DNA of 49,172 nt from IMG/VR virus record IMGVR_UViG_3300017963_000082. One strand, written 5' to 3'. The notes beneath the pieces were generated by a model, which saw only the letters and a list, made by a program, of their open reading frames with translations, had not been told where the DNA came from and did no database searches. This document shows, piece by piece, positions 1-49,172 of the stretch. The stretch is from a virus. How positions within the stretch are numbered: the stretch's first letter is position 1; each line of letters opens with the position of its first letter. The position numbers and the translations under genes are program-made.

Positions 1-123
1 GCGCTGGTTGTCTCGATTGCTTCCTGTTCCAATGTGAACCCGTAGCGCACCTCCTCAGATGCTACCTGAAAGTCAGTCTGTGCTGCCACCTGCCGCTTGA
101 GTGAGTTCTCAAATTCGTCCAGA
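1..123. repeat. Contig-terminal direct repeat, copy 1. It is identical to 49050..49172 and marks the overlap of a circular, permuted or terminally redundant genome with a 49,049-bp unit.
   Basis: Read directly: both copies run gcgctggttgtctcgattgc ... caaattcgtccaga. The repeat lies inside an open reading frame (tape measure), so it is not a cos end. Confidence 0.95.
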
Positions 124-1028
124 GCATCGCGGGTGTTGAACACATTGCCCTTGGATACCGCCATCGCGTCAGACCAGGCTTTGGTAAGCATAGCCACCTG
201 GCTGATAGTCTCAGGCAGCCTCCGGATCCGCGCCGCAAATTCATCCACCCCGCCGATGGTATCCACGAGCCCAATCAGCAACTCGCCTATGCCCACCTTG
301 GCATCCTGAACCGCCGCCGTCACTTTGTCGATCTTGACCTGGGCCAGCTCGGACGTATCGCCCAATTTCTCAAGGGACTTTGCGCCCTCTTCCATCACGG
401 CGATCTTGAACGCTTCCTCGCGGGACATGTCGGCGGTTGCGGCTTGCAGCTCCTCGATGCGATTACGCACACGCCCTGAACTGATGCCAAAGTTGTCCAG
501 GCGCGGGATCGACTGGTTTGCCAACAACGCCGAAAAGTCGGCTATCCTGTCCGTGGCCCCCTGCGTCTGGTCGCCCAGTTTCGTCGCTAGTGCCGCGACG
601 GTCTCCATTTCGTCGGCATCTTCGACTAGCCCCATCTGTAGCAGGCGGGCAGCCGATGACATCGCGCCCATCTTGTCCACAGTCCCATCGGTGGCGGTGG
701 CAAACGCTTGTAGGAACTCCTCGGCTTCCTCCGCACCACCGGCGAACCGCTCAAAGCGCAATTCCGCAGCCTCGGCCTGTGCGCCCAGCTTGCCCAGTTC
801 CACGATCTGCGCGGGGAGTTGGGTCAGAAATTCGGTAGCCATCTGCCCAGCACGTTGATAGGCCCCTTGCACAAAGTTGTCAAAGGACGCGCCAAACTTT
901 TTCCCGGTTTCGTCAGCCGCTTTGAGCTGGTCTTCGGTCTGCTCTAGCTGGTCGTTGAATTTCTCGACGACGACACTACCGTCATCCTTGACGACAATGC
1001 CGACCTCAATCGTGTGTCTCTGTGGCAT
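1..1028 (-). CDS. Tape measure protein, N-terminal part. The gene wraps through the window ends into 48233..49049 and is 614 aa in total.
   Basis: The minus-strand frame is open from the ATG at 1028..1026 down to base 1. It is in frame (939 nt) with ORF 48233..49138 across the terminal repeat. It translates MPQRHTIEVGIVVKDDGSV...LQMGLVEDADEM...IRRLPETISQ, a helical Ala/Glu/Gln-rich protein directly after the G/GT chaperones. Confidence 0.85.
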   Translation of the reverse strand, partial: MPQRHTIEVGIVVKDDGSVVVEKFNDQLEQTEDQLKAADETGKKFGASFDNFVQGAYQRAGQMATEFLTQLPAQIVELGKLGAQAEAAELRFERFAGGAEEAEEFLQAFATATDGTVDKMGAMSSAARLLQMGLVEDADEMETVAALATKLGDQTQGATDRIADFSALLANQSIPRLDNFGISSGRVRNRIEELQAATADMSREEAFKIAVMEEGAKSLEKLGDTSELAQVKIDKVTAAVQDAKVGIGELLIGLVDTIGGVDEFAARIRRLPETISQVAMLTKAWSDAMAVSKGNVFNTRDALDEFENSLKRQVAAQTDFQVASEEVRYGFTLEQEAIETTS

Positions 1029-18975: not shown

Positions 18976-19200
18976 ATGTTTGCCTAAAGGAAAAGCGGAG
19001 CACCTATCCCCAATGGTTGCCCACTGAGAACAAATGCCCCGCTGAGATCCCCAACGAGTTATAGAATTGTTACCGCTTGCCCTGTTCCTTTTTGGTGTAG
19101 ATGCTCCGCGGCAATGACCACAGTATTTCTAGCCCAGTCAAGATGAGCCGTACACCCTCGCGGATCATCATCTTGGCTTTGTGTTCGCGGTCAGCTGCTG

Positions 19201-19987: not shown

Positions 19988-20258
19988 CCCTAGCCATCCA
20001 CCCGAACATAAACACCATTGGGATCACCTTGAACATAATGCCCAACATCGCCGGCCCGATCCGCTTTCTCTTGCGCGGTGTGAGCCCTGTCTTGTCGATC
20101 GCCAGGTTGAGCGCGGTCGCTATCGCCGCGTGACTGAGTTCGTACCACCGGCCTGTACATATCGCGTCTACCCGTTCCGCGCCTAGCTGCTCCGTGATGC
20201 TGGTCCACGTCGGCTGGATCTCGACGGTTAGCTGTAGCCAATGTGGCTGGTCGGTCAT
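19959..20258 (-). CDS. Hypothetical protein with a C-terminal hydrophobic anchor.
   Basis: A 99-aa ORF with ...IGPAMLGIMFKVIPMVFMFGWM... near its C-terminus. Its start overlaps the upstream stop. Confidence 0.45.
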   Translation of the reverse strand: MTDQPHWLQLTVEIQPTWTSITEQLGAERVDAICTGRWYELSHAAIATALNLAIDKTGLTPRKRKRIGPAMLGIMFKVIPMVFMFGWMARDERGGDATD

Positions 20259-20500
20259 CTGTGGACCTTTCTGTACAACCAGAACGCGGCGCGCCCCAAG
20301 CGGCTACAAATGAACGGGCCATACTCCCCGAATGGTAGTGTTGCATTTTTGTCCCACTCTGTACGGGGAATGTCATAGAACAACATCTCGCCGCCTTCGG
20401 TACGCAGTCGTAACGTCACCACGTCCTGATAGAATCGATGGTGCATACTGACATCGAACTTGGCGCATTTGGTGATCTTTGGATCTGATATGACCGTCAC
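20255..20500 (-). CDS. Hypothetical protein.
   Basis: An 81-aa ORF between the large terminase and the anchor protein, with overlapping junctions. Confidence 0.45.
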   Translation of the reverse strand: MTVISDPKITKCAKFDVSMHHRFYQDVVTLRLRTEGGEMLFYDIPRTEWDKNATLPFGEYGPFICSRLGRAAFWLYRKVHR

Positions 20501-20531
20501 CCGATCAAAATCCCTTCTGCCATCGCGGCCA

Positions 20532-21815
20532 TCACCCTATGAGGATGTGCGCGCTATCCACGTACATCACGGCGTACCGCACCGCGTCCATCCCGTGATC
20601 GTTGACCTTGTGCGGCGTCTCTTTGTTCGGCTTGCCGTCGGCGGTCTTTTCCCACACGTAAGCCGGAAACTCATCTGCAGTGCATAGCGGCTTGTAAGCA
20701 CGCTTTAGTGTCGGGTCCACCTCTACTAGTGCATCCCTCATCACATGCAGCCGGGGCTTGCCATCGCCCGCCACCCGTAGCCGTGCCTGGACTGCCTGGA
20801 TACCCACCGATACCGCTTTCTTTGCTGCCCTGGTCGGTACCCCGTGCCGTGTCAGCGTTGCCCGGTCCTCCGCGTCGTGGTCGCACACTGTCGCCTCGAT
20901 CTTTTCCCCTTGACTCAGCTCTACGATTTGCCTGGCGTGGTCTTCTACGATCCGCTGGCTGTAGTAGATCTCGCGGTACAAGTACATCCTACCGTCACCA
21001 TCGATCGCCCACCACTGACAGGAGAATGGGTTTGTATAGCCAAAGTCCACCACCCGGAACCGTCGCCAATCTGCCGGGATCGGGAACGGGTCAATGAGGT
21101 GCGTGTCCTCGTGCCAGTCCTCATAGATCGCCCCCTCTGCCTGCGCTGCCCGTCCCTCGAATAGCCGGATACGACGTAGCCCTGTGAGACTGGATAGCCT
21201 CTCAAGTGTCTGTACCCCCTGCGGCGTCGGCTCTCCCGTCACCTGGTCGAATAGTGCCGGGTTGTCCTTGTGCCACGAGTAGAACCTGCGGATCGTCTCG
21301 CGCTGGTACATCCAATGTTGCGGCCAACTCGGGTTTGCATCCCCTATGGTCTGGGGGTATGGGACGTGCCCAGCGCGCCCGGTGGTGCGTGTGGTCAGTG
21401 TCTCCCAGTCGTCAAGGGTCAGTTCCTCCGACTGGTTGACATAGATGACATCGTGCTCCGCTGATAGGATACGCGATGACTTATCGAGCCCTGCTACCCA
21501 GATCCGCGCCTCGTTTGGATAGTCGTACCATTGGGCCTTCTCGCCGCCGTAGGTTTCGACTACGAGTTTCATTCCCTCGCCGCCGACTTTCTCCTCAAAT
21601 GTGCGAAGGACCGTGCTGTATGTGGATGTTAAGGTCTTGCGTAAAATCACCAGCGACGCATTCGGGTACTTGAACGCCAGCCGGTGCAGCTTCCACAGTA
21701 ACGCGATCGTCTTGCCTGTCTCTGCTGGCCCGATCAGTAGCACCTCGGGCGCTTGGCATTCTATCGCGGCTTTGTTGTTGGCATAGAACGATAGGTCGAT
21801 GTTATAGGCTGTCAT
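20532..21815 (-). CDS. terL: Terminase large subunit.
   Basis: The Walker A motif is LLIGPAETGKT. There is a Walker B-like region ...DVIYVNQSEE... and a C-terminal nuclease-like motif ...VNDHGMDAVRYAV. Confidence 0.88.
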   Translation of the reverse strand: MTAYNIDLSFYANNKAAIECQAPEVLLIGPAETGKTIALLWKLHRLAFKYPNASLVILRKTLTSTYSTVLRTFEEKVGGEGMKLVVETYGGEKAQWYDYPNEARIWVAGLDKSSRILSAEHDVIYVNQSEELTLDDWETLTTRTTGRAGHVPYPQTIGDANPSWPQHWMYQRETIRRFYSWHKDNPALFDQVTGEPTPQGVQTLERLSSLTGLRRIRLFEGRAAQAEGAIYEDWHEDTHLIDPFPIPADWRRFRVVDFGYTNPFSCQWWAIDGDGRMYLYREIYYSQRIVEDHARQIVELSQGEKIEATVCDHDAEDRATLTRHGVPTRAAKKAVSVGIQAVQARLRVAGDGKPRLHVMRDALVEVDPTLKRAYKPLCTADEFPAYVWEKTADGKPNKETPHKVNDHGMDAVRYAVMYVDSAHILIG

Positions 21816-22095
21816 CGTCCACGTTGCTGATAAAGTTGACGGATACCGCCCCGCTGATCTCCGCTTGCATCTTGGGCGGTCCGTCGATGTGCTGATACAG
21901 CCACTTCACGACATCAAACCATCCGGCACCATCTATCGAGAGCTGCATCACTGACCCGTCTGGTTGTGGCAACGTAGTCTGTCCAGTCGTGGCGAGTTCC
22001 CACATTGCGCGGGCAACGATGCGCTTCCCGCTGCGGCGTTTACCGTCAACGTCCTCAAGCGTCCGCGATCCCCTCTTCTCGAGGATCGCCGTCAT
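21802..22095 (-). CDS. Hypothetical protein, a candidate small terminase subunit.
   Basis: A 97-aa ORF immediately upstream of terL and overlapping its start. The assignment is positional only. Confidence 0.35.
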   Translation of the reverse strand: MTAILEKRGSRTLEDVDGKRRSGKRIVARAMWELATTGQTTLPQPDGSVMQLSIDGAGWFDVVKWLYQHIDGPPKMQAEISGAVSVNFISNVDDDSL

Positions 22096-22354
22096 CGCGC
22101 GGTTCTTTTTCGGTCGCCCATTTGGGTTTCCGCTTTGTCCCTATTTCCACGTTCCTGCGTTGCCCACCTGTTTTCCCCTGCTTTTCAGGATGTGCCGTCA
22201 CTACAAAGTCCAACACCTGCCCATGTTGCTTGCAGGCTACCAATTCCGCAAACTGCATTATCGCTGTCTCTGGTAGATCGAGCCATACGCGCAGCCCACC
22301 GTCTACCATCGTCTGGGCCTTGGCTACCGTTCCGTAGAACTCGATCGGCTTCAT
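22055..22354 (-). CDS. Hypothetical first gene of the late operon, a possible DNA-binding or small terminase component.
   Basis: A 99-aa ORF with a basic, Lys/Arg-rich C-terminal half. It is the first ORF after the terminator at 22376..22406. Confidence 0.35.
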   Translation of the reverse strand: MKPIEFYGTVAKAQTMVDGGLRVWLDLPETAIMQFAELVACKQHGQVLDFVVTAHPEKQGKTGGQRRNVEIGTKRKPKWATEKEPRDDGDPREEGIADA

Positions 22355-22375
22355 TCAGCCCCACGTACCCTATAC

Positions 22376-22406
22376 ACAAAACCGCACTCTACACTCAGAG
22401 TGCGGG
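22376..22406 (-). terminator. Rho-independent terminator between the early block/late promoter and the late operon.
   Basis: The minus-strand RNA reads CCGCACUCU GAGUGU AGAGUGCGG UUUUGUGU. This is a 9-bp perfect stem (22382..22390 / 22397..22405) with a 6-nt loop and a U-tract. Confidence 0.7.
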
Positions 22407-22415
22407 CAGCATTCA

Positions 22416-22447
22416 GCAGGGGACGCCAATCGGTCAACGCCCCCTGC
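22416..22447 (-). promoter_or_regulatory. Leader RNA hairpin between the late promoter and the terminator.
   Basis: The minus-strand RNA reads GCAGGGGGCG UUGACCGAUUGG CGUCCCCUGC, 10 pairs including one G-U. Confidence 0.45.
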
Positions 22448-22489
22448 CCCCTCGGGAGAAAAGGAGAGAATAGACGTGTTCATGGTTCC

Positions 22490-22518
22490 ATTGTACCATA
22501 GGTGGGGTGGGATGTCAA
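22490..22518 (-). promoter_or_regulatory. Near-consensus sigma70-type promoter, the candidate late promoter.
   Basis: The minus strand reads TTGACA (22518..22513), a 17-nt spacer, then TGG-TACAAT (22495..22490). It lies about 80-110 nt upstream of the terminator. Confidence 0.65.
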
Positions 22519-22552
22519 TAGAAAATGCCAGGATTGGCAATGTGGGGTTATG

Positions 22553-22729
22553 CTATGCGGGGGTTTCCTGTTTCGCCTTCCCCTTCCTATACTGTGGGCA
22601 GCCCTTGCGGTCAAAGCTACCGCGGCACTGGCTCACGAGCGCGGTACAGTTCAGGCAGATATTGATCTCCCGCTGCTTGGGGTTGTAGTTCAGCCGCGGC
22701 GTGGTCGTAGTCTTGGGTTTGGGGGTCAT
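22553..22729 (-). CDS. Small basic Cys-rich protein (58 aa), positioned where a late-gene regulator would be expected.
   Basis: It is not in the ORF track (<60 aa). The ATG at 22727..22729 overlaps the methylase TGA (ATGA), with the SD GGAGGTG upstream. The sequence is MTPKPKTTTTPRLNYNPKQREINICLNCTALVSQCRGSFDRKGCPQYRKGKAKQETPA. Confidence 0.5.
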   Translation of the reverse strand: MTPKPKTTTTPRLNYNPKQREINICLNCTALVSQCRGSFDRKGCPQYRKGKAKQETPA

Positions 22730-23400
22730 CGTAGCACCTCCGTGAAAAGTGACATCTGGGCGACGCGCTTGACGGCGATCTCGCAGTTGTGCTCTAAAAT
22801 GTCAATGCCGATCACGTGGTAGCCCAGTTCGACCGCCGCTTCCAGTGTTGAGCCGCTGCCCATGTACGGATCAAGGATCACGCCCTGCGGTTCGATCTGG
22901 TCAATGCACCATTTCATCAATGCAACGGGCTTTTGGTGCGGGTGTAGCTTTCCTCCGTTGGTGACGTTCTCTCTACCTGCCCGCATAATGCCGCGCCACA
23001 AGTGGGTAAACATTCGCACTGGTGCATCCATGTTCGTCCATGCCAGTTCACAGTCGGACTGTTGGCACGGCGTTTTTCCCGCCAACTTGTCCCACACAAG
23101 CCATCCGCTTTGATCAGGTAGGCGTGAGGCATAATACTGCGCTCCCCACAGGACCACACGCCGAAATCCTAGCCACGGCGACGGATCAAACGGCTGATCA
23201 TCGCCCACTATCGGCGCGAAATTGCCGTCCTTGCGTATCATATCGCAATCGCCGCGCCCGCTGTTGTGGTTACTCACGTATCCTTTGCCCCACGGCGGAT
23301 CGGTCACGATTGAATCGATGGGCGGCAATTCAGGGAGGATCTGCAGACAATCCCCATAGTACACCGTAACCCCTTCCCGCTCATAGTACGGCGTGATCAC
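22726..23400 (-). CDS. DNA methyltransferase, N4/N6 (N6_N4_Mtase-like).
   Basis: Contains SIVTDPPWGKGY and ILDPYMGSGSTLEAAVELG. Start set at the GTG 23398..23400, which overlaps the upstream TGA. Confidence 0.8.
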   Translation of the reverse strand: MITPYYEREGVTVYYGDCLQILPELPPIDSIVTDPPWGKGYVSNHNSGRGDCDMIRKDGNFAPIVGDDQPFDPSPWLGFRRVVLWGAQYYASRLPDQSGWLVWDKLAGKTPCQQSDCELAWTNMDAPVRMFTHLWRGIMRAGRENVTNGGKLHPHQKPVALMKWCIDQIEPQGVILDPYMGSGSTLEAAVELGYHVIGIDILEHNCEIAVKRVAQMSLFTEVLR

Positions 23401-23675
23401 CCGTCCCTCCTCACCGCAGCCAGCACCTGATCCGCCTCGCGTTTCATCACCCACACCTGTACAATGTTCGCATCGCCTGCCGCGTCGGGATACCTGTCCA
23501 CCGCGTCCGCCAGGACCAGGACAATGCGGTTCATCCCGGTCATCATCATAGCCCAGCGGCTTTGCAGGTCGCCCAGGGCCGCACATTTGCAAAAGCACAT
23601 CATCAGCACCCCGAGTCCGCTAAAGACGATCGCGGTGAGGACGACTAGGATGAAACAGTGCGTGGTGGTGATCAT
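23397..23675 (-). CDS. Small membrane protein.
   Basis: The ATG at 23673..23675 overlaps the Dam-like stop (ATGA), with the SD GGAGGGA upstream. The N-terminal TM segment is MITTTHCFILVVLTAIVFSGLGVLMMCF. Confidence 0.5.
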   Translation of the reverse strand: MITTTHCFILVVLTAIVFSGLGVLMMCFCKCAALGDLQSRWAMMMTGMNRIVLVLADAVDRYPDAAGDANIVQVWVMKREADQVLAAVRRDG

Positions 23676-24532
23676 GGTATTCCCTCCATTGTCATCTGTT
23701 CCGGTTTCGCCAGTGCCTCGACGGTGCGCGGGGACAACCACAGAGACTCAATCCGCTTGCCGCCGCTGTTTGTTTGTGCCTCTTTGTCCACACGATGCCA
23801 CCCGTGGTCCTCGTACAGTTCGGTGTAGAGGGGGCAGGCGTAGCCACTGACGACGACGTAGCCGGCGCACAGTTTCAGCAGTTCCGCGCATTCCTGGTGA
23901 AACGACCGGGAAACCTCAAGCCGATAAATATCGGCTTGCGATCGCGTTTCCGGCAAGTAGGGCGGGTCAAAGTAGATCAAGGCGTCCGCGTTGTCGTACC
24001 GCTGGATCACGTCTTGCGCGTCACGGTTTTCAGTTTGAACTAACCGTAACCGCTCGGCGCAACTCTCCAATATGCCCTCAATCCCCACCCAGTTAGATGA
24101 TCCTGTGACACAATAAAATGTTGCGACTCGCCATGTCTTACTTGTCTTACTGTGGTGCCCTCCCTGCATCGACATCCAAGATGCCACAAAGAACCGCCGC
24201 GCCCGCTCCACCTCATCCTCGCACGGCTCAAGGCTCAATTCATACTCTGCCCTAGCCCACGGCGTCAACCGTATCTTTCGGATCAGTTCGTCCGGTTGAT
24301 CGCGCAGCACCCGAAAGAAGTTGACCACGTTCCCGTCGAGGTCGTTGTACGTCTCAAGCGGTGATCGTGGCTTCTGCAGCAACACGGACGCAGCACCCCC
24401 GCACGGCTCTACATAGTTCTGGTGCTCTGGGAAGTGAGAAATGATCCACGGTGCCAGTCGCCACTTGCCGCCATAGTAGCGCAGCGCCGGCCGCTTTGGT
24501 GCGTCTCGTGCTATGATCACCCTCTCCTCCAT
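23672..24532 (-). CDS. Dam-like (D12-class) N6-adenine DNA methyltransferase.
   Basis: Contains LRYYGGKWRLAPWIISHFP...YVEPCGGAASVLL...IYFDPPYL. The start is uncertain (ATG 24532 or GTG 24520), and the track ORF extends to 24694. Confidence 0.8.
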   Translation of the reverse strand: MEERVIIARDAPKRPALRYYGGKWRLAPWIISHFPEHQNYVEPCGGAASVLLQKPRSPLETYNDLDGNVVNFFRVLRDQPDELIRKIRLTPWARAEYELSLEPCEDEVERARRFFVASWMSMQGGHHSKTSKTWRVATFYCVTGSSNWVGIEGILESCAERLRLVQTENRDAQDVIQRYDNADALIYFDPPYLPETRSQADIYRLEVSRSFHQECAELLKLCAGYVVVSGYACPLYTELYEDHGWHRVDKEAQTNSGGKRIESLWLSPRTVEALAKPEQMTMEGIP

Positions 24533-24639
24533 TTCCTCCGGGTGGGGGCGTTCCGATCCATTCCACCCCCACCCTATAACGCGCCGGTTTCGGATGCACT
24601 GCCTGACCTCTACTCTCTCGGCTATGCCCGGCGCGTTGA

Positions 24640-24942
24640 CTACACTCTCCCAAACCAGCGCAGAACATCCTCGAGACCAGATGCAACGATACAACAGTCC
24701 GCGTGGTATTTGGTCATATAGTATTCAGCCACGGTCATATCATCCTTTAGTCCAGGCGGCTTGACCTCTACCATTACCATCGCCTCGCGTCCTAGTGGTA
24801 TGCTATACCCGATCACCAGTATGTCCAGCACCTTCCCGCCTACATTGTGTATATCCAGCACGCACAGTCCAGCATCGCGCAAGTCCTGCATTAGCTGCGC
24901 CTGGTTCGCGTCGGGTTTCGTGTGGCGCGGGCGTGCGGTCAT
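24640..24942 (-). CDS. VRR-NUC / PD-(D/E)xK-type nuclease-like protein.
   Basis: A 100-aa ORF with KPDANQAQLMQDLRDAGLCV...VLDILVIG...AMVMVEVKPPG (D...EVK motif). Confidence 0.55.
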   Translation of the reverse strand: MTARPRHTKPDANQAQLMQDLRDAGLCVLDIHNVGGKVLDILVIGYSIPLGREAMVMVEVKPPGLKDDMTVAEYYMTKYHADCCIVASGLEDVLRWFGRV

Positions 24943-25106
24943 TGGGCGCTGTCCTCCACTTCGATCTGCCAGAGGGCGTGATCAAGGCCTGCGTGGGCAG
25001 CATTATCGTTTTCCACCACGAACCGCGCCTCCTCAATCAACTGATACACTAGTCCCGCGTCCGCCTTGGTTGTCATTCCCGCCTGGATTCTCTCTACCAG
25101 TGTCAT
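24939..25106 (-). CDS. Small hypothetical protein (55 aa).
   Basis: It is not in the ORF track. The SD GGAGGAG lies 4 nt upstream of the ATG at 25104..25106, and its stop overlaps the next ATG (ATGA). The sequence is MTLVERIQAGMTTKADAGLVYQLIEEARFVVENDNAAHAGLDHALWQIEVEDSAQ. Confidence 0.45.
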   Translation of the reverse strand: MTLVERIQAGMTTKADAGLVYQLIEEARFVVENDNAAHAGLDHALWQIEVEDSAQ

Positions 25107-25107
25107 T

Positions 25108-25821
25108 TCACTCCTCCTGTGCCGCTGCGATCGCGCGGACGTCGCCCCGCAGCTCTACCAGCTTGCCCTCACGCATCCGTGAATACAGGTAGCCCAGCGC
25201 CTCCTCTGGTGGTAGCGATCGCGTAGGGTCGTCGTTCGTGGCGAACAGCGTCAGATGCCCATCCTTGCGGCGGTAACGTGTGTCCACCAGTTCGAACAGC
25301 TTCTCGCGGCTCCACTCGGTAGCGTTGAACCGTGTTACCTCGTCGATCGCCAGAACAGGCACGGCCAGCAATTGTTCCCAATAGCGGCTCGTGTTCTCGT
25401 GGCGTCCGTAAAGCATCCGCAGGTGCTCGAGAATGCGGGACATTGGTTCATAGACGCCCTGGACGTTCTCGGCGCGTACCTCGTTGACCACGATCTGCAG
25501 GGCCAGCGACTTGCCCGCTCCGAAGTCACCCCAAAAGGTGTAAAAGCCCTTTTTGTACTCGATCGCGCACTGGATCACCGTCTTGGCCTGCCTCCGCTGT
25601 ACCTGCATTTTCGGCTCGAGTGCTGGTATGCGCCAGTCCTTGAGGGTGTGCGCCTGCTCCCTCTCCTCGAGTCCTGACCGTCGGGCCATCGCCGCTTGTT
25701 GTTCCTCAGTCGCACACCGGGGGCACGGGCGGATCATATCCTTGATGTCTCGCTGCCCTGCACCTACCTTGTCATCGTTCACCAGGTAGCCTAGGCCTCT
25801 GCATATACACGGTTCACTCAT
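25108..25821 (-). CDS. DnaC/IstB-like AAA+ helicase loader.
   Basis: The Walker A motif is GDFGAGKSLA and the Walker B motif is VLAIDEV. The N-terminus has Cys pairs (CICRG...CPRC). Confidence 0.72.
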   Translation of the reverse strand: MSEPCICRGLGYLVNDDKVGAGQRDIKDMIRPCPRCATEEQQAAMARRSGLEEREQAHTLKDWRIPALEPKMQVQRRQAKTVIQCAIEYKKGFYTFWGDFGAGKSLALQIVVNEVRAENVQGVYEPMSRILEHLRMLYGRHENTSRYWEQLLAVPVLAIDEVTRFNATEWSREKLFELVDTRYRRKDGHLTLFATNDDPTRSLPPEEALGYLYSRMREGKLVELRGDVRAIAAAQEE

Positions 25822-26656
25822 CGTCTATCCATCCTGTCGCTAGTGGCACTTCTTGCACGGGTTCCGGTTGGCGTCCGTTGCCGTTGTTGCGGGGACGTTT
25901 CGGTATGCCGTCCCTGAACCAGTCGAGCATACCCGTGATGTTGCGCGGCTTGTAACCAGCCGCAAGCCAAGCGTTGATCGTCGCCTTCCACTTGTCCAGG
26001 GCGCGCGGCTCAGTGCCTACTGCGTGGTGAATGTCTGCCGCTATGTTCCAATTAGGCACGGTTGCATCCGTGAGGTCGCCCCAGACCTTGACCGACGGTG
26101 GCGGGTTGTATCTGTCATAGACGAAACGCTCACCGGGCGCGGGCGCTTCTGTCTCTCTCTCTGTCTCTGTATCTGCTTCTGTCTCTGTATCTGTCTCTGG
26201 TCCGTTACAGTCACGTTTCTGTAACGTTTCTGTAACGTTACATTGTAGCGTTTCCTCGCTGTTACTTGGCCGTTCCTCTTGGGCTTTTTTCCGTGCTCTG
26301 TGTGCTCTTACGCGGGGGGTACTGTTGTCGCTTTCGTATTGGCGCGTTTGCCAGTTTGTGCAGGTCAGGGTATTTCCCTCAAGGTGTAGCATTCCCAAGT
26401 TCTGGAATGTGTCGATCAATTGCTGCACGATCTCGAGATCCATTTCCAGATCGTCCGCTATGTCCTCAACCGTCACCGGCACACTTACAGCCCACAGCAG
26501 ACGCCCACGCTCGGGCGAGTCGTTTGCCATAGCCAAAAGTGTTAGCCAGGTACCGCGCACCTCTACCCGTTTGCAGCCGGTGATCCGACAAATGCGGGTC
26601 AACTTGCGGTCTGATAGGATCTCACTGTACACTCTGAACCACGGATACTCACCCAT
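25814..26656 (-). CDS. Phage replisome organiser / replication initiator-like protein.
   Basis: The N-terminal domain is YPWFRVYSEILSDRKLTRI...WLTLLAMAND. The acidic TETE/TETLQ central linker is encoded by the direct repeats at 26146..26255. It lies upstream of the DnaC-like gene. Confidence 0.6.
   Translation of the reverse strand: MGEYPWFRVYSEILSDRKLTRICRITGCKRVEVRGTWLTLLAMANDSPERGRLLWAVSVPVTVEDIADDLEMDLEIVQQLIDTFQNLGMLHLEGNTLTCTNWQTRQYESDNSTPRVRAHRARKKAQEERPSNSEETLQCNVTETLQKRDCNGPETDTETEADTETERETEAPAPGERFVYDRYNPPPSVKVWGDLTDATVPNWNIAADIHHAVGTEPRALDKWKATINAWLAAGYKPRNITGMLDWFRDGIPKRPRNNGNGRQPEPVQEVPLATGWIDDE
26146..26255. repeat. Iteron-like direct and inverted repeats inside the organiser gene, a candidate origin.
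   Basis: tctgtctctgtatctg occurs at 26160 and 26178 (18-bp period), with a partial copy at 26146. cgtttctgtaa occurs at 26214 and 26225 (11-bp period). The palindrome tgtaacgttaca lies at 26231..26242, and gttacag/ctgtaac at 26204/26219. Confidence 0.55.
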
Positions 26657-28832: not shown

Positions 28833-29016
28833 TCAGATCCATAATGCGGTGGACATACCACGTGCTGTCACATTCGACTGAAGGCGTGCCGTCGTCCTCC
28901 ATCTTGATCGTGCAAATGTGCTGCCCATTGTCGCCGAATACAAAAGAGGCGTGTTCCCCTCTCTGCAGCCGAATCGCGCCCAATGGTACGCCTTTGACTT
29001 CTTTACACTTTGACAT
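28816..29016 (-). CDS. Hypothetical small protein.
   Basis: A 66-aa ORF with the SD GAGGAGG upstream of the ATG at 29016. It is the first gene after the promoter and leader at 29017..29207. Confidence 0.55.
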   Translation of the reverse strand: MSKCKEVKGVPLGAIRLQRGEHASFVFGDNGQHICTIKMEDDGTPSVECDSTWYVHRIMDLSGGDD

Positions 29017-29178
29017 TGATCCTCCTCAAACTAAAAAGCGCCTCTGTGTAACGTCGGTGCCGGTAGCAATCCACCAGGGGGGTAAACGGCGACCGGCGCT
29101 ACACACAAGCGCTTTTCGATCTACTGTTCCCCGGTAGGCTTGCTACAGCCTCGGCCCGCACTTTCTCGGACCATCCTC

Positions 29179-29207
29179 ATCTTACCACATCCCGTCCCCG
29201 ATGTCAA
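29179..29207 (-). promoter_or_regulatory. Sigma70-type promoter with an extended -10.
   Basis: The minus strand reads TTGACA (29207..29202), a 17-nt spacer, then TGG-TAAGAT (29184..29179). It lies in the 208-nt gap between genes. Confidence 0.62.
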
Positions 29208-31246: not shown

Positions 31247-31353
31247 GGGAGACCGGCGGGACTCGAACCCGCGCATACCATCTCTGACGTATCCGTATCA
31301 CCGGAGGCCAGTTAATCCCGGGCCGGCTGCTCTGCCACTGAGCTACGGTCTCC
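31247..31353 (-). tRNA. tRNA-like gene with canonical acceptor, D and T arms but an oversized anticodon/variable region. The isotype is undetermined.
   Basis: The minus strand reads G-GAGACCG-TA-GCTC-AGTGGCA-GAGC-A-[55 nt]-GCGGG-TTCGAGT-CCCGC-CGGTCTC-C. U8, A14, G18G19, A21, T54-A58 and G53:C61 are all in place, and no CCA is encoded. Confidence 0.5.
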
Positions 31354-35847: not shown

Positions 35848-36144
35848 ATGGTAGAAGGACAGCAACTAGTTACCGTTTGGGTGACACCTGAAATGCACCG
35901 AGAATTCAAGACCAAGTGCTTCCAGAATGGGCGCACCATTAGTGGCGTGCTTCGTGATGGGATCGAGGCGTACCTGGACGGTAAGAGTGCCGCCGGGCTG
36001 GCCGCAATAGGCGCGGATCTGATCGAGGGACTTGACGACTGGATGAACTTTACACAGCAGGCGTGCCCGTTCTGCAACACGCATTTCAGCCACGCGGACG
36101 ACTGCGTGATCGGGAGACTGAGGACAGCAATAGATGGGAAGTGA
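35848..36144 (+). CDS. CopG/Arc-type ribbon-helix-helix DNA-binding protein.
   Basis: The N-terminus is LVTVWVTPEMHREFKTKCFQNGRTISGVLRDGIEAYL. It is the first gene after the divergent promoter region, and the C-terminus has C..C...H..DC. Confidence 0.6.
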   Translation: MVEGQQLVTVWVTPEMHREFKTKCFQNGRTISGVLRDGIEAYLDGKSAAGLAAIGADLIEGLDDWMNFTQQACPFCNTHFSHADDCVIGRLRTAIDGK

Positions 36145-48232: not shown

Positions 48233-49172
48233 TCAGTTCATCGAGTTCAGCAGGTCAAAGTCCTGGATGACGCTGGATTGCGTCGCCCTCGTGTTGACGG
48301 TCAAGTTGTTGTTGGTGATCGGCTGGACCATCACGCGCTCAGGGGTTGCACCCTCACCGACCAACATCCGACGCGGGCCCCCGAAGCCGGGACCGACCAT
48401 TCCATCGAACCCGGTCTGGAAACCCTCTTGGAGACCTGTATCTGTCGGGCGTGCAGTGGTTGTAGGTGGTACTGCTGAACTTGTACCGCGCTCCGTGATC
48501 ACAACCTCAATATCAACCCGTTTCTTGTCCGGTATGTCATCGATCAGCGTGGCTAATTCCTCAACCTCATCTTGCCCCGTGCTGGCGCTCATAATGACAT
48601 CTTGCAGCGCTTCGTCAAAGTCCGTTGCCGCGATCTCGCCAGCGCCAAAATCACCGACCAGCTCCAAGATGCTAGAGGAGAGCCGGATGCTTTCCTCGTC
48701 TGCAAGACCAAAAGCGATCTGCGTTTCTGTCACAGCAGTCGCGTAATCTTCGGCGGTGATCGTGTCCTCTGCCATCAACTCACCCAACTCAGTGATCGCC
48801 GCCGATGCTATTTGTGCGTCTGTTGCACCCATCAGACTCTGCTGGAGGTTTGTTTGTTCTGTCGCTGCTGCTTTTGCCGCTTCTGTCTGTGCGGTCAGCG
48901 TTTCGAGATATGTCGGCGCCGCCGCAATAGCCGCATCCTGTGCTGCCTGTGCCGACGCGATCGCTTGCGCGTACTGGTTGTGTGCTAGTGTCGAATCGCC
49001 AGCGGGGACAATGCCATTTCTAACCGTCTCCTGGTAGGATAGCATCGCAGCGCTGGTTGTCTCGATTGCTTCCTGTTCCAATGTGAACCCGTAGCGCACC
49101 TCCTCAGATGCTACCTGAAAGTCAGTCTGTGCTGCCACCTGCCGCTTGAGTGAGTTCTCAAATTCGTCCAGA
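48233..49172 (-). CDS. Tape measure protein, C-terminal part, continuous with 1..1028 through the terminal repeat.
   Basis: The ORF 48233..49138 has no true start: its first codons RQVAAQTDFQVASEEV continue the frame read at bases 1..123. It is Ala/Thr/Gln-rich and helical. Confidence 0.85.
   Translation of the reverse strand, partial: LDEFENSLKRQVAAQTDFQVASEEVRYGFTLEQEAIETTSAAMLSYQETVRNGIVPAGDSTLAHNQYAQAIASAQAAQDAAIAAAPTYLETLTAQTEAAKAAATEQTNLQQSLMGATDAQIASAAITELGELMAEDTITAEDYATAVTETQIAFGLADEESIRLSSSILELVGDFGAGEIAATDFDEALQDVIMSASTGQDEVEELATLIDDIPDKKRVDIEVVITERGTSSAVPPTTTARPTDTGLQEGFQTGFDGMVGPGFGGPRRMLVGEGATPERVMVQPITNNNLTVNTRATQSSVIQDFDLLNSMN
49050..49172. repeat. Contig-terminal direct repeat, copy 2 (identical to 1..123).
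   Basis: Read directly. Confidence 0.95.

Follow-up and report, generated by a model that had tools for sequence, protein, structure and literature searches.

The late genes of a phage may be gated by a terminator that appears grafted onto an older leader-RNA hairpin

How does a phage time its late genes when an intrinsic terminator stands between their promoter and their first gene? The question is raised by a 198-nucleotide (nt) gap on the minus strand of IMG/VR virus record IMGVR_UViG_3300017963_000082, between the stop codon (22553) of a gene for a 58-amino-acid (aa) protein, p58, and the ATG (22354) of the first late gene, p99. We analyzed the whole 49,172-nt stretch, which we call the window. 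Late-gene timing in tailed phages beyond the lambdoid and T-phage models is largely unknown. A first-pass annotation had likened this gap to the PR'/tR' arrangement of phage lambda, in which a promoter is followed closely by a terminator, and the layout does bear that comparison. We find, however, that the leader RNA is best read as a diverged and rebuilt member of a leader family that is undescribed and not in Rfam, and that its terminator appears to be a lineage-specific addition on one strand of an older hairpin. This homology and this graft are what is new here. The late genes, for packaging, structure and tail, are probably gated by regulated read-through. The form of control that we favor, at a probability of roughly 0.4, is an attenuator-type leader in which termination is the default and a trans factor would permit read-through.

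The late promoter (Table 1) is intergenic, faces the late genes and matches 11 of 12 consensus positions plus TG, which makes it an extended -10 promoter of sigma-70 type. By simulating the 49-kb window 200 times with a first-order Markov model of its own dinucleotide content, we estimate that sites with at least 11/12 matches plus TG should occur 0.015 times per genome, and those with at least 10/12 plus TG 0.22 times. Two of the former (22518 and 35742) and four of the latter (the same two, 29207, and 35795 on the plus strand) were seen. In each of the four the spacer is 17 nt long, and each is intergenic and oriented toward genes; we conclude that they are genuine promoters, which a host polymerase would read as TTGACA-N17-TGnTAnnnT. 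The set (TTGACA, N17, TGn, TAnnnT) is therefore informative on the RNA polymerase of the host. The late promoter is further supported by the extended -10 that the window shares with its closest relative, contig L267, where the motif ATGGTACAAT occurs as ATGGTACGAT. Transcription is predicted to start at 22483 by the established sigma-70 spacing rule. A rival late promoter beyond the terminator was also sought, but the late block contained no site reaching 10/12 plus TG, and nothing comparably good was found downstream of the terminator. An inverted repeat, ATGGT-N8-ACCAT (22480..22499, minus strand), flanks the -10 and the predicted start and may be an operator or, given its 5-bp arms, chance.

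From the predicted start, the minus strand runs through a pyrimidine tract, a hairpin (HP1), a 10-nt spacer, the terminator and 19 further nt to the p99 ATG. The promoter, hairpin and terminator thus lie where the first-pass annotation had placed them, and the distance from terminator to first late gene, which it gave as about 20 nt, is the 19 nt counted from the U-tract. Its stem lengths had to be revised, from 10 to 14 bp for HP1 by folding, and from 9 to 10 bp for the terminator. The terminator stem (CCGCACUCUG/UAGAGUGCGG) has 6 G-C pairs among its 10 and a stability of -15.7 kcal/mol. Its GC-rich stem-loop stands directly before a U-tract, as in an intrinsic terminator, and no other hairpin in 20000..26000 combines 10 or more pairs (6 G-C) with such a tract after it. 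The minimum free energy (MFE) of the 116-nt leader, -48.8 kcal/mol, is better than that of 200 out of 200 dinucleotide shuffles (z = -3.3) and equals that of the complete state with HP1 plus terminator; the MFE fold has two adjacent stem-loops, at 22466..22448 and 22447..22416.

Direct searches with this leader returned little. Rfam 15, run on the window at the gathering threshold, matched only a tRNA (31248..31352), and a permissive scan of 22300..22600 gave chance-level matches only. No exact copy of HP1 was found in viral contigs, and neither these nor phage records matched the leader at the nucleotide level. In a blastn search of the leader against 165 terminase-linked loci, identical copies alone were recovered, and the leader is 100% identical to the window's on all 10 metagenome contigs that carry p58. 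The first-pass annotation had proposed comparing the leader across related phages for covariation. As shown below, such a comparison bears out a fold at the level of the family, but the 10 identical copies leave HP1 and the terminator without covariation of their own.

The family came to light through the terminase. Searches based on the terminase yielded 180 loci with up to 78% protein identity, and a few of them hold p99 homologues, each directly preceded by a conserved non-coding block that reads CAUCAUC-UCUCCUCCUUU, then 5-9 nt, a GC hairpin (GYGUG-GGGGCGG...CCGCCCC-CACRC) and GAGGG. The element spans ~85 nt and consists of an anti-Shine-Dalgarno-like pyrimidine tract, the GC hairpin and a purine tract (L188:3426-3510 on the minus strand, L217:637-721, L087:392-476, L100:186-270 and L267:801-872, among others). 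With a pattern scan of viral contigs included, its tight version is present on about 13 distinct related uncultured phage contigs. In the nine contigs whose covered DNA includes the terminase gene, it lies 380-1740 nt upstream of that gene. Three terminase types (427, 506 and 419 aa) are represented downstream, and it is not always the same gene that comes first behind the block. L004/5, L008/94, L095, L118/9, L003, L215 and L208 carry more diverged versions that keep this architecture.

Several results indicate that this element acts as a folded RNA. RNAalifold predicts a basal helix, P1, between the pyrimidine tract and the purine tract past the hairpin, with a basal P2 and an apical P3 inside it. 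In an alignment of 24 matches, 93% of cells were paired compared to 81% in shuffles and 49-64% with slid partners, and both sides change in 16 of 19 pairs; these figures lean toward structure, because the alignment was fitted to the model and includes three antisense matches and one that is likely spurious. The sense strand folded better than the antisense strand in all 19 sequences compared (16 family members and three window segments), by a mean of 4.8 kcal/mol, and the sense strand of HP1 is 8.8 kcal/mol more stable than its antisense. Rfam held no matching family for the relatives L087, L100 and L088, and a full-text literature search for terminase-linked phage RNA motifs gave nothing relevant. 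Two other explanations of the block were considered. The complement of the tract gives a perfect AAAGGAGG (Shine-Dalgarno) followed by ATG, but an opposite-strand gene was rejected because the frames range from 7 to 199 aa, are mutually unrelated and are missing from L263 and L267; the upstream genes on the element's own strand, moreover, are conserved in the relatives. A cos or pac DNA site is unlikely, given stems that covary and include G-U pairs and a fold that favored the sense strand in 19/19 cases. The element's own role may be to occlude a ribosome-binding site (RBS), to serve as an RNase III site or to bind a protein.

To place the window in this family, we built a covariance model, R1, from 12 relatives with the window left out and used it, with filters off, to search both strands of the entire window. 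The best match anywhere was the late leader (22481..22386 of the gene strand, with 19 bits and an E of about 1e-3), although the match is weak and P1 is partly broken; there was no second significant copy. The link is strengthened by L267, a contig found through its p99 homologue, which shows 89% identity in the aligned region; the L267 leader scores 27.8 bits. A hand alignment of L267 and the window has three common segments, ATGGTAC(G/A)AT, CATGA(T/A)C..GTC and TTCTCTCCTTT, and UUCUCUCCUUU of the pyrimidine tract is identical in both. About 57 nt that in L267 make up the loop and 5' arm of a hairpin further upstream are missing from the window. Upstream of its leader, L267 carries a metallophosphatase-like gene, as other relatives do. 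On the strength of this intermediate and the common flanks, we read the window leader as a diverged, rebuilt family member.

The terminator, by contrast, has no counterpart: no U-tract terminator was found in L267 or in any other relative read. Yet the strand on which it is built seems to be old. The family 3' strand CCGCCCCCACGCUGAGGGG aligns with window CUGCCCGCACUCUGAGUGU, identical at 14 of 19 positions by hand count, and this is the 5' arm of the terminator. The family 5' strand GGGGCGGGG corresponds in the covariance-model alignment to window GGGGCAGGGGG, the 5' arm of HP1, where it is paired locally. Because the ancestral 3' strand is now the terminator 5' arm, the ancestral fold and the terminator are mutually exclusive. 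Comparison with the relatives appears to catch a terminator in the course of being grafted onto one strand of an older hairpin.

These elements suggest the following course of events. A host polymerase using the sigma-70-type extended -10 promoter would start transcription at about 22483. By default, HP1 and the terminator would form and the transcript, of ~105 nt, would end at the U-tract. The terminator would also halt polymerases coming from the upstream operon, as the first-pass annotation had noted, since read-through on the same strand meets it. With a terminator before them, the late genes would be made only when it is overcome. The ancestral hairpin, made of pyrimidine tract, GC hairpin and purine tract at the head of the packaging module, appears to have gained new local partners, namely the HP1 3' arm for its old 5' strand and the terminator 3' arm for its old 3' strand. 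Its ancestral pairing, GGGCAG/CUGCCC with GAG/CUC and CUC/GAG, would occupy 6 of the 10 nt of the terminator 5' arm, and because this ties up the arm, an attenuator-type switch is the most likely device. A trans factor, as yet only postulated, would favor the ancestral fold or else block the terminator hairpin. The energies are in keeping with this proposal. In the nascent RNA, before the terminator 3' arm is made, the default HP1 fold has -33.2 kcal/mol and the forced ancestral pairing -29.8, a difference of 3.4 kcal/mol. This suggests that termination is the default and that the ancestral fold is within reach of a stabilizing factor.

Two other sites in the window make read-through control more plausible. 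A second terminator-like hairpin, long and imperfect and followed by UUUUCCUUUA, lies within the late block at 19042..18995 on the minus strand, before the portal ATG (18975). A second unit of promoter, leader and terminator (29010..29207) opens with the extended -10 promoter at 29207 on the minus strand (TTGACA, N17, TGgTAAGAT) and continues as a structured leader of ~160 nt (z = -4.1), at whose end a long hairpin stands between AAAA and UUUUU, with 8 nt left to the RBS of a 66-aa gene. The promoter-then-terminator layout is common to the late leader and this one, and both internal promoters of the phage have a terminator-like structure behind them. Together with the PR'/tR'-like layout, these sites make the regulated read-through implied by the first-pass annotation a reasonable conclusion. 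A sequence motif common to the two leaders was looked for and rejected, as the best 24-nt local alignment scored 21 compared to 16.2 +/- 2.4 in shuffles, which is not significant. Separately, the portal gene has hardly any Shine-Dalgarno sequence.

Still, a number of points weigh against an attenuator. Its anatomy is read from a single sequence plus homology, and the identity of the leader in all 10 contigs gives HP1 and the terminator no covariation support of their own. The match of the window to the family model is weak. The ancestral fold takes up just a portion of the terminator arm, the default fold is the more stable of the two, and no candidate factor is conserved with the leader element. 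Because the relatives manage without a terminator, the primary role of the element may also be a different one, such as RBS occlusion, RNA processing or RNA stability. Finally, the promoter and terminator rules used here are those of model bacteria rather than of the phage's own host.

Table 1. Features of the late leader and its surroundings in the window
Feature	Position	Strand	Description
Late promoter	22490..22518	-	-35 TTGACA 22518..22513; 17-nt spacer; TG 22498..22497; -10 TACAAT 22495..22490
Predicted transcription start	22483	-	A at +1, C at -1, 6-nt discriminator GGAACC; also the A of an AUG
Pyrimidine tract UCUAUUCUCUCCUUUUCUCCC	22454..22474	-	21 nt, +10..+30; anti-Shine-Dalgarno-like; homologous to UCUCCUCCUUU of relatives
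Hairpin HP1	22416..22447	-	14 bp including 4 G-U; loop CCGA; -22.4 kcal/mol alone
CUGCCCGCACUCUGAGUG	22392..22409	-	Counterpart of ancestral 3' strand; overlaps terminator 5' arm
Intrinsic terminator	22374..22405	-	Stem 22405..22396 with 22391..22382; loop AGUG; U-tract UUUUGUGU 22381..22374
Open frame, 37 codons (MNTSILSF...RFCV)	22370..22483	-	From the +1 AUG through HP1 and terminator; inner part of open reading frame 22370..22540
Weak 5-bp hairpin, then UUUUCUAUUG (UUUUCU)	22526..22539	-	Between p58 stop codon and -35
p58	22553..22729	-	58-aa basic protein, four Cys; last gene of upstream operon
p99	22055..22354	-	First late gene; ATG at 22354
p97	21802..22095	-	Packaging gene opening the late operon
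Large terminase	20532..21815	-	Terminase_3; phrog_2, E = 3e-26; packaging gene opening the late operon

A simpler account would dispense with dedicated antitermination. The terminator would mainly end the upstream (middle) operon and, being leaky, damp the late promoter to a fixed level; timing would be set at the promoter, for example by a phage ribbon-helix-helix repressor, and the leader would affect only RNA stability or translation. L267 and all other family members do have the leader and no terminator, and a scan of 20 other early or rightward genes found no Q, N, sigma or other transcription-elongation family and hence no known antiterminator. The U-tract UUUUGUGU is interrupted, and the inverted repeat around the -10 and +1 could serve a repressor, although arms of 5 bp easily arise by chance. 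However, a 10-bp stem with 6 G-C pairs and four leading U is a credible and efficient terminator, and it is hard to explain without gating why an 11/12 promoter should lie upstream of it rather than downstream. We consider this account unlikely. The weak hairpin between the p58 stop codon and the -35 is possibly a leaky terminator of the upstream operon.

If the terminator is overcome by a trans factor, the neighboring p58 would be one candidate, and the first-pass annotation had proposed it as a factor in the position of lambda Q. It looks like a genuine gene, as its ATG overlaps the stop codon of the methylase before it (ATGA) and GGAGG stands 7 nt upstream, and it is identical on the 10 metagenome contigs. 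A word-indexed search of 5.8e9 proteins returned only p58 itself, and exhaustive HMMER against 1.8e9 cluster representatives added only a low-complexity match. There was no Pfam or PHROG match even at E <= 10 and no PDB sequence match, and the single-sequence AlphaFold2 model was poor, with a mean confidence (pLDDT) of 59. A motif of 15 residues, I-x-ICL-x-CT-x4-C, is common to p58 and a Cys-rich open reading frame in a relative (L089:51-440; pairwise E = 6e-4) that lies ~2 kb upstream of the leader element there; the motif is too short for a homology call.

As a Q-like, RNA polymerase-modifying processive antiterminator, p58 would load near the late promoter and carry polymerase past 22382, 18995 and later sites. 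Its gene lies directly upstream of the promoter, like that of Q, and the protein is basic with four Cys. The pyrimidine tract contains a -10-like TATTCT at +12..+17 that could be a sigma-dependent pause of the kind found at Q and AlpA loading sites (PMC9371919, PMC9388147), and the late block has more than one terminator-like site to pass. The terminator and p58 are also both present in the window and both absent in L267. Yet L267 keeps the promoter -10 and the leader without having p58. TATTCT, although it fits T-A-N3-T, is weak and not kept in L267, and by our own estimate such a hexamer occurs in the first 25 nt by chance about one time in five. No Q-binding-element-like repeat can be defined from what is, given identical copies, a single sequence. 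Without a homologue, family or PDB match or a confident model, and with one short motif in one unrelated reading frame as its sole similarity, p58 is an orphan whose position resembles that of Q, and nothing else we analyzed ties it to control. We consider the Q-like role improbable. Nor does any evidence back the further suggestion that the small size of the factor may point to a new mechanism.

Read-through could also be coupled to translation, since the predicted start coincides with the A of an AUG. A ribosome that initiated on this leaderless AUG and translated the 37-codon frame would melt HP1 and the terminator. Only transcripts from the late promoter would pass, whereas upstream transcripts, which carry the AUG internally and without an RBS, would terminate; the frame's stop, 15 nt before the p99 AUG, would couple translation of p99. 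If true, the leader would be an insulator that tells transcripts apart by their 5' ends and spares late-promoter RNAs only. The +1 is canonical (C at -1, 6-nt discriminator), the frame stays open across both hairpins to UAG at 22372..22370, and we estimate the joint chance at about 0.01 across the four promoters. The RBS of p99 is weak (GGGG). Leaderless translation is common in Deinococcus and Actinobacteria, and terminase relatives are found in genomes of Chloroflexi, Deinococcus and Actinobacteria. However, the pattern was spotted after the fact, and the peptide is not conserved, L267 having only a 7-codon GTG frame from +2. Other genes of the phage have strong Shine-Dalgarno sites, and the argument leans on a predicted start at 22483 and on a host presumed to translate leaderless mRNAs. 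The frame is thus a candidate leaderless leader reading frame without conservation support, and we regard its control of read-through as a long shot.

Less likely again is an RNA that acts in cis on RNA polymerase without any phage protein, like the put sites of phage HK022, an analogy that the first-pass annotation had offered as its second option. In its favor, the MFE fold places two adjacent stem-loops ahead of the terminator, at a distance of 17 nt from the start, and the element is conserved as a sense-strand RNA. Nevertheless, the conserved fold is one long hairpin with pyrimidine/purine tract pairing at its base, no second copy stands behind other promoters of the genome, no Rfam family was matched, and the relatives have nothing nearby to antiterminate. 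A self-acting RNA would also leave a terminator that never works on late-promoter transcripts, so the put analogy does not hold up well. Equally hard to credit is a trans-acting small RNA of ~105 nt, running from promoter to terminator, whose pyrimidine 5' region would pair with purine-rich RBSs of phage or host mRNAs while late genes received read-through only: it has the classical anatomy (a C/U-rich 5' seed that is free to pair, then stem-loops and a U-tailed terminator) and top predicted phage targets that include the gene starts at 36134 (plus strand, -27.6 kcal/mol) and 31031 (minus strand, -26.1) against a genome mean of -7 +/- 4, but a C/U tract scores well on any G-rich start region, so that the target scan is not discriminating, the relatives' tract is paired inside the leader with a gene directly after it and no terminator, and the late genes would be left without a promoter of their own.

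The end frames of the window (3..1028 and 48233..49171, minus strand) join in frame into one gene of ~655 aa over the junction, indicating that the record is a circularly closed genome. The late block therefore runs from 22354 through 1 and 49172 to about 41262. All late genes do lie behind the terminator, but the ~29 kb first assigned to them becomes roughly 30 kb on the circle. The large terminase is followed by portal and structural genes. Upstream on the same strand lie a replisome organizer, a DnaC-like loader, an HNH protein, Dam-type and N4/N6-type methylases, and p58. The p99 family has a conserved N-terminal domain of ~55 aa with the signature PIEF..V.KVQTL.DGG.R..LDLPE, modeled as beta-beta-alpha with a pLDDT of about 90 over residues 1-50, and p99 had no Pfam, PHROG, PDB-sequence (profile) or PDB-fold match. 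Its members, which include L267:873-1133, L088:155-433 and L217:721-933, open the packaging module in several phages.

A nucleotide search of a phage collection recovered only methylase and terminase fragments at 66-72% identity, and among metagenome contigs the terminase scan gave relatives of at most 71% identity. The genome scan that gave the terminase relatives named above points to hosts spanning several phyla. Separately, the tRNA match at 31248..31352 (minus strand) scores 47.6 bits in Rfam and has intact acceptor, D and T arms, with about 45 extra nt in place of the anticodon/variable region; ARAGORN makes no call there.

How does an attenuator-type late leader compare to known systems? 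Terminator/antiterminator leaders that respond to a trans factor include the RAT leaders of BglG, SacY and LicT, ANTAR targets, and the PyrR and TRAP leaders. The window leader resembles them in having exclusive folds, an alternative that overlaps the terminator 5' arm, termination as the default and nascent folds that are nearly isoenergetic. Unlike these leaders, it stands before the late operon of a phage and not before a metabolic operon, its arm overlap is partial, and no RAT, ANTAR or other Rfam motif was found in the window. The put RNAs of HK022 are paired sites in two early operons, each with two defined stem-loops. They share with the window a structured RNA that a phage operon carries between its promoter and its first terminator, but here there is a single site in a late operon, where one long hairpin is the structure that is conserved.

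A third group comprises leader hairpins that occlude a Shine-Dalgarno sequence and phage leaders processed by RNase III, such as the lambda N leader, the T7 R sites and RNA thermometers. Similarly, the relatives' CCUCCUUU pairs with the purine tract after the hairpin, and several times this tract is the RBS of the first gene. However, the purine tract is kept without a following gene in L189, L259 and L089/L090, and the window's RBS lies beyond the terminator, unpaired with the tract. Whatever its role, the family provides a defined RNA for possible functions in late-gene translation, RNA processing or antitermination.

Small size would not in itself disqualify a phage factor, as the p7 protein of Xp10 has 73 aa and lambda N has 107 aa. 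Both are named as phage antiterminators (PMC9371919). Proteins far below the size of Q can thus make RNA polymerase resistant to terminators, but p58 has no sequence similarity to either, and no boxA/boxB-like site was recognized.

The closest systems are the lambdoid PR'-qut/QBE-tR' regions, which work with Q (lambda, 21 and 82), and AlpA (PMC9388147, PMC6606751, PMC9371919). Like Q, AlpA requires a promoter binding element and a -10-like pause element before the downstream terminator (PMC9371919). As in these systems, the late genes of the window stand directly behind a strong sigma-70 promoter that looks constitutive, an intrinsic terminator follows it about 100 nt downstream and makes a short RNA the default product, a small gene lies directly upstream of the promoter, and the initially transcribed region contains a -10-like hexamer. 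Unlike in these systems, no Q or AlpA homologue was found (Pfam, PHROG and PDB were negative), the candidate is a 58-aa orphan, no binding element can be defined, and the nearest relative lacks the terminator. The window leader also differs from the 6S-type leaders of lambdoid phages in belonging to a conserved RNA hairpin family. If the attenuator-type reading is true, this phage would use promoter-proximal termination as lambda does, with no recognizable Q and on a different, conserved leader RNA.

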